This document shows, piece by piece, positions 8,498 to 16,034 of a stretch of 64,000 nucleotides of DNA. The translations under genes and the position numbers were made by a program. The first letter of the stretch is position 1. Each line of letters begins with the position of its first letter. The stretch lies in the NCBI GenBank assembly GCA_000165425.1, contig CT868252.1, positions 372,001 to 436,000 of the forward strand, written 5' to 3'. The notes beneath the pieces are model-generated. The model did no database searches. It saw only the letters and a program-made list of their open reading frames with translations, and was not told the origin of the DNA. This DNA is from Paramecium tetraurelia (taxonomy: Eukaryota).

Positions 8498-9848
8498 ATG
8501 AATTAACTCATATTTTCGTTATTGATTGTCACAACTCTCTGTGGCTAAGAGTAAGGTAGTTTCCTTTAAGAAAAACAAGATAACAAAATATTCACCATAA
8601 AATTAAAGGAAACTCATAAAACTGTATGCTATCCATTTGAAATCATAGGTTACAGCAAAAGAAATGTATGATTTTCTATCAACTAAACAAACATATTTTC
8701 GCTAACAGACTCCAATTGATATTTAGGAAATAGAATTTGGTGGGTATGTTCCAAAACCACAATAAAAGGAGTAAAAAAAGGAAACATCTCTAAAATTACA
8801 CAATTTTAAGAATACTTAATTTACTGGACCCATAACAGTAGGCGATCAAGAATTCTAAGTGATCTTTGATACTGGTTCTGCAAATTTTTGGATAGACTCT
8901 GCCAAATGCAAGAATGAAGGATGCAAACAACATACACAATATAAACCAAGTCTCAGATCGAAACATTTGGGATATGCTTTGAATGTCCAATTTGGTACTG
9001 GGGATTTAAATGGAGAAATTAATTCTGATGTTGTGAAATTGGGTGAAATAGAGGTTGAGGACTAAAATATTGCAGAAATAATAGAGGAGAATGGTTCAGT
9101 TTTTTAAAATGTATGAAAGTTAAATAATTGCAAAGTCAGGATTCGATGGTATAGTGGGATTAGCTTATCCAAGTATGGCAGCCTATAATTTTAATCCATT
9201 GTTTGACAATATCATCCAGGAGAAGAAATTGAAATCTAATCAATTCTCATTTTATATGAGTAACTAAGTCAATAGCTATGAATCCTAAATTACCTTTGGA
9301 GGTTATGATGTCACAAAACTTGATGGTCCAGTTCATTATCATCCAGTTATTGATAAATACTATTGGATGATAAAGGCTGAGAATATATTAGTGAATGGAA
9401 AAGATGAGGGATTCTGTCCTAAGGGTTGTAAATTGGTAGCTGACACTGGTACTTCCCTCATTACAGGTCCTTTTGAGGATTTGATGAAACTATTAGGTAT
9501 TTCAATAGATCCATATTAGATTTAACCAATATCAATGATGATTGCTCTAACTTAAATTAGTTGCCTAAATTAACATTTAAGATTGATGGAGTTGAATACG
9601 ATCTAGAATCTAAAGACTACATTATGGAATTAAAGGATGATGGTACAGAAATACCTTTAAACAATGATGTATCAGCATCAGCATTCCTTTAAGGGACTTC
9701 AAGACAATGTATTGGAGCCTTTATGCCATTGGACATTCCAGATCCTCAAGGACCTGCTTGGATTTTGGGTGATATTTTCTTAACAAAATATTTAAGTATT
9801 TATGATAGGGATACAAATATGGTTGGATTTGGAAAGGCCAAACATTGA
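8498..9848 (+). CDS. Secreted pepsin/cathepsin D-like aspartic protease (A1)
   Basis: Signal peptide; catalytic IFDTGSANFW and VADTGTSLI; FDGIVGLAYP; WILGDIFL; tiny introns. Confidence 0.95.
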
Positions 9849-10508
9849 TTTAATCAATTTATATACAAAATATCATAAACTCAAAATCAATAGTGATTTG
9901 GTAGATCACCATATAAAACTGTTTTTATTCTTCTGGAAAATTTAAATTACTTTAATTGATGTTGTAGATAATCTATAAATAATTATTCAATTTTCTTTGA
10001 ATTTTAGTATGTCTCTTAAGCCAATTTTTTTTACAGCAAATAAATAATCAGATACAAGAGAAGTGCTGAATTAAAGCCTATATTATTATTGTCTTGAGAT
10101 GATTATATTACAAAATATCATTTTGTTATTTTTTAGTCCTATTTTGACATCATTTTGGTGCGATCTAGTGATGAAGAGTGACATTACATAGATAATAAAT
10201 CATTTGGAAAGTGGCCATGTGGTTTGAGTATCTGAATTAATTTTAGATGTAAATATGTGCTTATGCGAATGCAATGTTATTAATAATAATTTAAACTTGT
10301 TGAAATTCACATATGTGGCTCTAGTCATTGGAATATAAATTAAATGACTTTTTGGTAAATATTATAATTAATATGTCTAAGAATTTAGAATGATTTTTCC
10401 TGATTTCTGACAATTTTACATTAAATGTAAAAATTTTAGTGCGCATTATTTTTTAATATAAAAATTGGAAGCAGAATCTTGTAAATTGCAATAAATATAT
10501 AATCTTTA

Positions 10509-12037
10509 ATGAAAGCAGCTCCACGCATCTATGAAAATCAACCAACAGAGAAAGTTGATAACGCAGACTTCTTTATCTAACAATTTTACATCGAGTGTTT
10601 GGCCACATTTTCTTATTACATTGAATCCAAAGGAGAGGCTGCCGTAATTGATCCCTTGAGGGATATTGAATAATATGTGTAATACTTGTATATCTATGGG
10701 AAGTGAATTGGCCAAAGAGAGAAATGCTAACATAAAATGGGTGCTTGAGACACACTTCCATGCAGATTTTGTGAGTGGCCACCGAGAATTAGCAGCTATC
10801 ACTGGAGCAACCATAGTATATGGTCCAACTGCAGTTGCTAACTTCCCTATGAAACAAGCCAAAGATGGGGAATTGTTACCGCTCGGAACAGTCTAGATAA
10901 GAGTGGATCACACTCCAGGACACACAATGGAATCCAGTTGTTATGTTTTAGTTTCCAAAGGAAAAGACCATTCAGTCTACACAGGGGATACCTTATTTTT
11001 GGGGGAAGTAGGCAGACCTGATTTGGCTGTGAAGAGTGGAGAATTGACAGTTGAGATGTTGGCTGCACATCTCTATGATTCATTAAGAAATAAGGTTATG
11101 AAGTTGAATGATGATGTAATCGTCTATCCTGGACATGGTGCAGGTTCATCATGCGGAAAGGCCATTGGAGCAGGAAAGTTTTGCACTATTGGAATTTAAA
11201 AATAGAAAAATTATGCTTTGCAACCCATGTCAAAGGAAGACTTCACTAAATAGGTTCTTGAAGGCATGCCAAAGCCCCCTCAATACTTTTTCCACGATGC
11301 AAAACTTGTAAATTTATATATCTCATAACATCTAGAATAAAAGTGGACCAGCTGATATCACTCTTTTATTAAATGAAGTTTAAAAGGCACTGACATATGA
11401 ATAATTCATGGGTTTTGCCAAATCAGGAGCAACCATCCTTGATACAAGACCAAATGTTGCAGAAGGAATAATTGATGGAGCCATCAATGTTACATTTATG
11501 TCAGGATTAGTCAACTTTGTAGGAGCTGTCATCAAACCAGATACTAAATTAATAATTATAGCCAACTAAGGTGATGCTTAAGACACAATCCTTTAGATTG
11601 TTCAAGAATTGGATATGATAATATTTTAGGATACTTGTAAGGAGGATTTGAAGTTTATAAAAACAATGGGGGACCATTAGCAACTACTGTCAAATTAGTC
11701 AGTCTAGTTGAGTTTTGCGATGTCAAAGTCGACCCAGGTATTGTAATATTTAATATCAATAGAAAAACATGCATTTTTAGATGTCAGAGGACCAGGAGAA
11801 CATAAGGAGACTGGTTTTATCAAAGGAGCTATAAGAGTTCCATTACCTGAAGTGGAAGCTAATCTTGCAAAAATTCCTAAGGATAAAATTGTCCATGTTT
11901 ACTGTAAAACAGGAGGAAGAGCAAAGATTGCTATGAGTCTTCTCGTTAGAAATGGTTATAAGAATCTTGTGATTACATAAGAAGGAGGCTTCCCTTAAAT
12001 GAAAGAAAAGTAATTGGTGGAAGTTGAGAATGTTTGA
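10509..12037 (+). CDS. MBL-fold persulfide dioxygenase-like domain fused to tandem rhodanese domains
   Basis: ETHFHADFVSG, HTPGHT, TGDTLFLGEVGRPDL, YPGHGAGSSCG; C-terminal rhodanese LDVR...VYCKTGGRA; three introns; two apparent +1 insertions near 11593 and 11604. Confidence 0.9.
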
Positions 12038-12233
12038 TAAGCATATATATTCATATTAAAAGTATTTTAACAAAATTAATAACTTTCATCTTTTAGTTAA
12101 ATTGGATTCAAAAGGAATTCAATAAAATTAATTTAAAATTATATGAAATTATAAAGGAAAGCTATGAATAGATTTCTATAAGCTTTGCAAAATTAAAATA
12201 TAGATTATAATTTTTGTACACAAACCAATACTC

Positions 12234-14652: not shown

Positions 14653-16034
14653 TCATTTAAGATGAATAAACATAGATGTTGGATTTTCTAAATATGTTTT
14701 CCAAACATTATTAAATCTTGCTACAGTTGCTCCATCAATAACCCTATGATCGCAACCGAAACTTAGGTTCATCTAAAATAAATCTTGAATCATTACAATT
14801 TTCCTTGGAACAACATTCATCTTAGCATCATATCTTGGCACAGTCATCAATCTACCAATCCCAACTATACACACTTATGGGGCGAGAATAAGAGGACCAG
14901 TATAAGTACCACCAATAGTACCGATATTGCTCAAACAAATTGTGCCTCCAGATAATTCATTAAAACTCAACTGTCCCTTTTCTCCTAAAATTCTTAGTCT
15001 ATACTCCATTAAGAATTCAAAGTTACCTATTCAATTCATCTTGTATTTAACTAATCGACAGATTCTATACATTTTTGATATTAGGCACCACTAAACCTTT
15101 AGGAGAGTCCAAAGCCACAGACACATTATGAGATGAATGTTATGTATATTCGAATTATTTTGTTGGATCATATGTTGAATTCAATATAGGATATTTGGTT
15201 AATGCCAAAGAAAAGGATTTAATGAGTAGTGTCATGAATGTGATATTCTTTTCTTTTTTCAATTATTCTCTCATTTATGCTAATTCTGTGAGATCAACCT
15301 CTTCCTTTAAGTATAAGTGAGGAATAGAGTTGGCTTCAGTCATTGACTTTTGCATTCCCTTTTGAAAATCTGACATTTTGATGACAGTGGAAGCGGATTC
15401 GCTTTTAATGTTGATTTTAGTGGATGATTATGGTTGTTCTTTTGGTGATTATGTTTACTTTTCAAGATCTGTCTTTAAAATTCTTCCATCTTAACCACTG
15501 CCTTAAATCTTGTTCAAATCTATTCCTTTTTATTTTGCCAAATGACGGACAGCTGGTGTTGCTAATTTATGATTCTACAGATAATTAATCTAAATGTACT
15601 GAAGCATTGTTGTTAGTTTATATGGTTTAATGTACTTCTTATTATTTTGTGACTTCTTATTTCACTTAATGATGTTGAGTCTATGGTGTTGCTGATTCTT
15701 GATTATCAGATTCAATCTCTATTTCTAAGAAATCTCCACCCACTAAACATGTTTCATCCTCTTAGTGGAACAACTTATGAATCTTCCCTGTGTAATTACT
15801 TGGAATTTGAGTGAACATCTTATCTGTTGAAACATCCGCAACAGGATCGAACTATTATCAAAAAAATGACGTACTTCATTCACATGATCTCCTATCTTAA
15901 CATGCCATTTTTTAATAGTGGCTTCCTTGATCTCTAAAATCATGATAACATTTACTTTCCCCTAAATCAGGCAACTTGAAGATCTTCACTGCACCAAAGT
16001 AATATCTACTCAAAAATCGTGAATATATATTCAT
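14653..16034 (-). CDS. DBT: Branched-chain 2-oxoacid dehydrogenase E2 (dihydrolipoamide acyltransferase)
   Basis: Lipoyl domain FKLPDLGE...VSTDK, E3-binding ATPAVRHLA, catalytic [13 protein letters not shown]. Confidence 0.9.

Follow-up and report, generated by a model that had tools for sequence, protein, structure and literature searches.

We examined a 64,000-nucleotide stretch of the Paramecium tetraurelia genome (assembly GCA_000165425.1, contig CT868252.1, positions 372,001 to 436,000; hereafter the window) and found that it carries, at positions 10509 to 12037 of its + strand, a Paramecium gene that is intact, spliced and transcribed. Judged by its sequence, the product belongs to the type III (CstB-type) persulfide dioxygenases (PDOs), in which a metallo-β-lactamase (MBL)-fold dioxygenase, a rhodanese domain without cysteine (RHD) and a catalytic rhodanese are fused in one chain. 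The gene is likely to have been acquired from the neighborhood of the Bacteroidota. Type III PDOs have been described from bacteria and archaea in a survey of prokaryotic genomes (PMC5702731), and the self-S-sulfonation mechanism has been described for Staphylococcus aureus CstB only (PMC12934615), as far as the available parts of these two sources go. Our literature search, which took in few subscription papers and stopped short of the supplements to ciliate gene-transfer studies, returned no paper joining ciliates, Paramecium or the accessions used here with persulfide dioxygenase, ETHE1, CstB or transfer of an MBL-rhodanese gene. The enzyme family and its mechanism are thus known from bacteria; what is new is a eukaryotic CstB-type family, predicted to be partly mitochondrial, in a genome with no detectable ETHE1.

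Domain architecture and catalytic residues

Pfam searches identified Lactamase_B in exon 2 (E 6.5e-12) and Rhodanese in exon 4 (E 3.5e-14), with a weak Rhodanese match in the region between them (E 0.062). Residues 218 to 384 contain no cysteine, and the middle rhodanese is therefore Cys-less. The order PDO, pseudo-rhodanese, rhodanese within a single chain was recovered from Pfam, from a search of the Protein Data Bank (PDB) and from the predicted structure. The best PDB sequence match was a bacterial protein, 3tp9 from Alicyclobacillus acidocaldarius (E 1.5e-65, 35% identity), followed by S. aureus CstB (3r2u, 5.6e-54) and human ETHE1 (1.6e-12). The AlphaFold model of a 96%-identical ortholog (P0001; predicted local distance difference score 94 from a 63-row alignment) also found its best full-length structural match in 3tp9, with a template modeling score (TM) of 0.87-0.88 and a root-mean-square deviation of 2.4-2.5 Å; for S. 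aureus CstB the TM is 0.89 over the solved part.

We mapped the protein onto plasmid-borne S. aureus CstB, taking residue roles from, and reproducing the numbering of, the available part of PMC12934615 (bioRxiv 2026). The residues at 16 of the 21 compared positions are identical, among them H56/H58/H119/D145, F148, R154, G194/196/198, C201-G202-K203, G206, R370, C408 and R413. The iron triad H74 (10753), H130 (10921) and D152 (10987) corresponds to CstB H56/H119/D145, with H76 at H58. The Gly-rich loop PGHGAGSSCGK is kept, its C207 (11152), G208, G204 and K209 standing for CstB C201, G202, G198 and K203, as are the loop-anchoring R161 (CstB R154) and F155 (F148 of the F148/L205 stack). In the last domain, C439 (11903), within YCKTGGR, is CstB C408, and R400 (11786) and R444 (11918) are the steering residues R370 and R413. 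The five differences are N10C, Q13T, P200S, L205I and the absence of C20; Cys30 is extra to the Paramecium protein. Thus the three-domain order, the His2Asp iron triad, the Cys-Gly shuttle loop, the Cys-less middle domain, the rhodanese cysteine and both steering arginines are shared with S. aureus CstB at about 30% identity, whereas the Paramecium gene is eukaryotic and intron-bearing, forms one of 8 paralogs and has no operon or CstR. An earlier note, made from the letters alone, had proposed a CstB-like rather than ETHE1-like layout here, and Pfam, PDB matches, residue mapping and superposition of the P0001 model all agree with it.

ETHE1 and other type I PDOs, including BpPRF (PDB 4chl, 5ve3), have in common with the Paramecium protein the MBL fold, the His2Asp iron site and a step downstream of sulfide:quinone oxidoreductase (SQR), and BpPRF is itself a PDO-rhodanese fusion. 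Unlike the Paramecium protein, these enzymes are specific for glutathione persulfide (GSSH), release sulfite and have neither the Cys loop nor the RHD; identity to type I PDO is 26% over 184 residues, against 47% over 461 residues to a Bacteroidia protein, and the whole-chain TM is 0.45. Where type I PDOs have HDYRG, the Paramecium protein has the Cys loop, 8 residues longer, and the combination of an HDY-motif GSSH site, a single domain and no Cys loop is not found. No NCBIfam model scored above its cut-off: the glyoxalase II model TIGR03413, the best match, gave 64-67 bits against a curated 200.8, and the Blh (type II PDO) model NF040641 gave 46-48 bits against 625. These sub-cut-off scores, the Cys loop and the low identity rule out membership in the ETHE1, Blh and glyoxalase II groups.

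That glyoxalase II is the best NCBIfam match, that JGI, like several source annotations, uses the name 'hydroxyacylglutathione hydrolase' and that the genome yielded no conventional glyoxalase II among the matches listed would fit a glyoxalase II-like or other MBL hydrolase. S. aureus CstB, however, likewise falls below the TIGR03413 cut-off (78 bits), the motif THFHADF lacks the final His of the binuclear metal motif THxHxDH, and neither the catalytic rhodanese nor the loop cysteine would have a role in that reaction; we regard a hydrolase as very improbable.

Phylogenetic position and origin

Relatives were collected from the best 120-150 matches of each search, in which bacteria dominated. 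After the Paramecium orthologs, the best 120 matches were from Bacteroidota or carried no taxon, with 61-69% identity over the MBL exon. A search started from a transcript-sized match without a taxon brought up a eukaryote-like set, with three Tetrahymena species and Platyophrya, a colpodean, among its members; every named eukaryotic row among the matches listed was a ciliate. A profile search with a 35-row alignment of the ciliate-containing clade brought no newly named eukaryote among its best 120 rows. For P0001 and P0343 the ESM Atlas clusters were all bacterial and are uninformative on eukaryotic range. A scan of GTDB with a single protein gave one locus, and few rows on the bacterial side of the tree therefore bear a name.

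For the trees, 416 proteins were reduced to 383 near full length and then, by clustering at 75%, to 189, which with named loci and models made 203 rows. Hand-picked sets of 65 and 47 rows were analyzed with IQ-TREE under LG+C20; type I and II rows were left out as too distant, and the type III enzyme ZpPdoIII of Zunongwangia (from the available part of PMC5702731) was also left out of the alignment. FastTree (203 rows) placed the named ciliates, except the divergent Tetrahymena paralog P0372, in a 46-row clade with support 100. The quick LG+C20 analysis (65 rows) gave a 29-row clade that includes P0372 (support 81), and the careful one (47 rows) a 22-row ciliate-containing clade (95/99). We read the FastTree placement of P0372 and P0363, which lie outside the clade there and inside it under the mixture model, as a long-branch effect.

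The 22-row clade sits within a 38-row clade (100/97) whose six other named members are all Bacteroidota-type (Bacteroidia, Bacteroidota, Sediminibacterium, Chondrinema and Ca. Kapaibacterium), bearing out the Bacteroidetes affinity proposed in the earlier note. Bacillota and Rhodococcus rows fall outside this larger clade, as does Sphingobium in the 65-row tree, and the maximum likelihood (ML) sister of the 22 rows is a Bacteroidia/Bacteroidota pair. The closest relatives (Sediminibacterium, Bacteroidia and Chondrinema rows) resemble the Paramecium protein in having the CL motif at the N-terminus and the full set of catalytic residues; the bacterial genes adjoin TauE or rhodanese genes, whereas the ciliate copies have introns and N-terminal extensions, many of them presequence-like. 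Bacterial relatives lie in sulfur-handling surroundings: TauE plus a rhodanese adjoin the Chondrinema gene and an SQR-like oxidoreductase the Bacillus relative, and the S. aureus relative lies in the cst operon. Because the clade is common to Paramecium, Tetrahymena and Platyophrya, the transfer appears to be ancient and not specific to Paramecium. We infer its direction and age: a single old acquisition, before these three lineages split, is likely from the sequences at hand.

Three results count against this history. Support for the sister pair is only 87/85, with a bootstrap correlation of 0.970 that had not converged; a position of the ciliates as sister to, rather than nested in, the 16 Bacteroidota-type rows is not rejected (approximately unbiased (AU) p 0.228); and 14 of the 22 clade rows and 10 of the 16 Bacteroidota-type rows carry no taxon, 8 of the 22 being assignable to ciliates. 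The horizontal transfer suggested in the earlier note accordingly keeps its footing in host integration and in the ML nesting, and is weakened by the unrejected sister position and the rows without a taxon.

Those unassigned rows would also suit an older eukaryotic gene of bacterial origin, alveolate-wide or spanning stramenopiles, alveolates and Rhizaria (SAR), for example, and patchily lost. A standard-code contig (L056) holds at least one subclade: a clade member there, with 43-44 nt GT-AG introns, has eukaryotic neighbors, namely adjoining proteasome beta and laforin-like genes, and the best 120-150 matches from which relatives were drawn are mostly bacterial. Set against this older origin, the named eukaryotic rows among the matches listed are all ciliate, and union of the clade with a second group (P0400, P0343 and P0403, picked after FastTree) was rejected (AU p 0.0015). 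We consider the older origin fairly unlikely and favor the single acquisition described above. As a separate observation, P0400, P0343, P0403, P0401 and also P0281 are CstB-type proteins with eukaryote-like N-terminal extensions that stand outside the ciliate clade; they may represent further independent transfers into other eukaryotes.

Paralogs and predicted localization

A search of the genome with exon 2 gave 12 matches at 8 loci, which splice models and trees divide into three subfamilies: A (the studied gene, its ohnolog on contig C424 and one locus on C202), B (a second C202 locus and one on C569) and C (loci on C666, C14 and C682). For the subfamily A locus on C202 (L004), the public model P0005 or the ortholog P0004 was used in place of a splice model. 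Intron 1 has the identical alignment column and phase in the studied gene and in 6/6 fully modeled paralogs, covering all three subfamilies, which indicates that the gene was domesticated before the paralogs split.

Basic, nearly acid-free N-terminal extensions are present in subfamily C, in Tetrahymena P0165, in Platyophrya P0142 and in several further rows; on a crude count, they appear typical of mitochondrial presequences. The N-terminus of subfamily A has three acidic residues among its first 18 and lacks a mitochondrial-type presequence.

Several further features of the family were noted. L004 shows an apparent assembly frameshift directly after HTPGHTM (C202, near 341477-341492; P0005 is 472 residues long), possibly an assembly error like that in the studied gene. 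An aspartyl protease gene lies upstream of both the studied gene (window 8526-9850) and L004, and several paralogs have 2-oxoacid dehydrogenase E2-like genes close by (window 14653-15661 and the flanks of L003, L004 and L006); these shared flanks are conserved synteny from whole-genome duplications. Tetrahymena P0372 (XP_001012739) has lost the first iron ligand, the loop cysteine and the rhodanese cysteine, and begins with MGCSSS, which we take to be a myristoylation/palmitoylation-like motif; from its sequence it is probably a pseudoenzyme anchored to a membrane. The loop cysteine is also missing from P0363, P0358 and P0276.

Other sulfide-pathway genes

The genome searches were six-frame searches of a single assembly (72.09 Mb, 697 contigs, with the window on contig C269), evaluated on the best matches listed. 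Four profile or query searches found no ETHE1 or Blh among those matches. With a type I PDO query that matches human ETHE1 at 2e-83, 8/8 candidates were loci of the present family (best E 1.6e-9, about 27-38% identity). PF00753 gave 14 matches among 20 candidates, comprising 7 family loci and 7 others, with no ETHE1 or Blh; by their motifs, we take the others to be LACTB2-like (2), CPSF3-like, INTS11-like and MBLs linked to cyclic-nucleotide domains (3). TIGR03413 gave 10 of 11 (7 family matches, 2 LACTB2-like, 1 degenerate glyoxalase-like), again with no ETHE1 or Blh and no conventional glyoxalase II among the matches listed, and NF040641 gave 7 of 8, all family and none Blh. The sole glyoxalase II-like gene found (L047, C18:83180-83407) has a degenerate-looking metal motif, THGRSNH.

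An SQR-like query from Bacillus gave 21 matches on nine contigs (C690, C691, C54, C81, C19, C28, C41, C20 and C18), in pieces down to about 50 residues, which shows that such searches pick up genes split by introns at 30-50% identity. The one SQR-like match that was checked (L030) has human SQOR as its best PDB match (E 2e-40) and a short presequence-like start. SQR-like genes are expanded to about nine loci, and ETHE1 is likely, though not proven, to be absent from the genome.

Proposed mechanism and role

The steps proposed here are carried over from S. aureus CstB, and we infer chemistry, product and localization. Any small-molecule persulfide would persulfidate loop C207, and C207-G208 would mimic glutathione at the iron site. 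Fe(II), held by H74/H130/D152, would then use O2 to oxidize the C207 persulfide to an S-sulfonate bound at C207; the Gly-rich loop would swing toward the rhodanese site, guided by R400 and R444, and persulfidated C439 would attack the S-sulfonate and release thiosulfate without free sulfite. The persulfides could be supplied by the many SQRs of the genome. The product of the studied gene would act in the cytosol, and the presequence-bearing paralogs in mitochondria in place of ETHE1.

A CstB-type enzyme is not GSSH-specific and has its own loop cysteine as substrate. The part of PMC5702731 at hand reports thiosulfate production in E. coli by the type III PDO of a member of the Bacteroidota (Zunongwangia) together with SQR. 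By analogy, we hold a CstB-type role for the Paramecium protein to be probable: it likely oxidizes persulfide sulfur to thiosulfate, independently of glutathione and downstream of SQR, in the cytosol, and the family probably fills the place in sulfide detoxification that ETHE1 has in animals and plants. More tentatively, as a proposal with slightly less than even odds, we suggest that ciliates replaced ETHE1, the canonical eukaryotic enzyme, by one of CstB type derived from Bacteroidota, directed this enzyme to mitochondria and multiplied it into paralogs of three kinds: cytosolic, mitochondrial, and membrane-anchored but catalytically dead. This would yield a hybrid pathway, from mitochondrial SQR to a self-S-sulfonating CstB, that is GSSH-independent and makes thiosulfate without free sulfite, and in which the subfamily of the studied gene would be a natural 'Q13T' variant with a possibly switched product. 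If true, a major eukaryotic phylum uses a second sulfide-detoxifying step other than that of animals and plants, which matters for the tolerance of bacterivorous ciliates to habitats that are sulfidic and microoxic; natural variants, such as Thr at position 13 and the dead paralog, would also inform what decides between thiosulfate and sulfite.

Some observations sit poorly with this scheme. Conventional glyoxalase II was also not found among the matches listed, so genes may have been missed, and the absence of ETHE1 is drawn from six-frame searches of one assembly and the matches listed. Localization was judged by a crude count of charge and moment rather than by a trained predictor. L205, called 'invariant' in CstB, is Ile here, as it also is in named Bacteroidia. 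The subfamily of the studied gene has, at the position of CstB Q13, the Thr of canonical PDOs, and the Q13T variant of CstB is inactive (PMC12934615, available part). Positions 13 and 205 vary among bacterial members too and are therefore not family-defining, but the Q13T change does inactivate CstB.

The same Thr is the basis of the main functional rival, which keeps origin and fold and changes the chemistry: Thr33 would restore the Thr-Asp-water network found in canonical PDOs and sulfite would be released, or the protein would be mainly a sulfurtransferase or persulfide buffer. T33 aligns with the Thr of type I PDO, and Thr at this position is confined to the Paramecium subfamily of the gene (4/42 rows), other members having Q, E, H, S or L; in the available part of PMC12934615, release of sulfite is linked to the Thr network. 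That source also states, however, that a product switch requires other features too, and the shuttling residues (equivalents of the loop cysteine, G198, R370/R413 and C408) are kept in the ohnolog and in four other Paramecium species. We therefore judge changed chemistry unlikely and retain thiosulfate formation as the preferred reading.

Gene structure, transcription and genomic context

The motifs quoted in the earlier note were all found on the + strand under the table 6 code, which the gene uses from an ATG at 10509 to a TGA at 12035-12037. The features are listed below.

Features of the CstB-type gene (positions in the window)
Feature	Position	Strand	Basis
Type III persulfide dioxygenase-RHD-rhodanese fusion gene, 482 aa	10509..12037	+	Reads, ohnolog, orthologs; matches GSPATT00012502001
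Exon 1: 20-aa acidic N-terminal extension, MBL start, C30, T33 (= CstB Q13)	10509..10678	+	
Intron 1, 25 nt, phase 2, GTA..AAG	10679..10703	+	Model, reads, paralog alignment
Exon 2: PDO domain with Fe triad and CstB-type Cys loop	10704..11307	+	Pfam, residue mapping
Intron 2, 28 nt, phase 0	11308..11335	+	Model, reads
Exon 3: Cys-less pseudo-rhodanese (RHD) and linker	11336..11737	+	Pfam, predicted structure, residues
Two spurious single assembly bases, false +2 frameshift	11594 and 11603	+	Ohnolog, RNA reads, contig X11
Intron 3, 25 nt, phase 1	11738..11762	+	Model, reads
Exon 4: catalytic rhodanese with YCKTGGR, then TGA stop	11763..12037	+	Pfam, residues

All three introns are short, AT-rich and GT-AG, in a window of 24-34% GC. 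In two oligo-dT RNA runs of a single study (X23 and X24, 58-nt reads), the soft-clipped ends of at least 18 and 36 reads at intron 1, and of at least 11 and 36 at intron 3, continue into the adjoining exon, as do those of at least 15 reads at intron 2 (X24). The formal splice-joint table for the two runs holds no entries for the gene, because the reads are only 58 nt long. Coverage is confined to 10492-12091, with depths of about 7-32 and 29-108 in the gene and zero on both sides, and the first mates all map to the - strand.

Removing the three introns alone leaves the assembled frame closed, with a +2 shift relative to the C424 ohnolog (82% nucleotide identity): the assembly carries two extra single bases nine apart. 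Both are missing from 10/10 (X23) and 23/23 (X24) covering RNA reads and from a contig of run X11, which retains the introns and is therefore DNA-like; the frameshift is thus an assembly error. Accordingly, the three tiny introns of the earlier note are supported by poly(A) read ends, but do not by themselves open the frame, the shift having been overlooked. The corrected coding model has 1449 nt and no internal stops, with 14 TAA/TAG and 5 CAA/CAG glutamine codons, in keeping with the reassigned code noted earlier. Its product is 94-98% identical to four 482-residue orthologs, from P. pentaurelia, P. octaurelia, P. sonneborni and P. primaurelia. The true product is therefore 482 residues long, and the public 474-residue model (GSPATT00012502001, P0123) is off by 8 residues, missing at the frameshift region.

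Identity of 61-69% between the MBL exon and bacterial proteins, together with the +2 shift of the assembly, might have pointed to a bacterial contaminant or a frameshifted pseudogene. Spliced poly(A) reads, 14 in-frame TAA/TAG codons, eukaryotic neighbors (TRAPP, aspartyl protease, NAP, Bax inhibitor and 2-oxoacid dehydrogenase E2) and orthologs in four other species leave either reading a negligible chance. Contamination is ruled out by the spliced reads and the neighbors, and a pseudogene by the absence of the extra bases from the RNA reads. Introns, host code, host neighbors and expression are all present, as expected of the genuine host gene that had been claimed. Upstream of the gene, at window position 10399, a third single base is missing from the X11 contig and is probably another assembly error.
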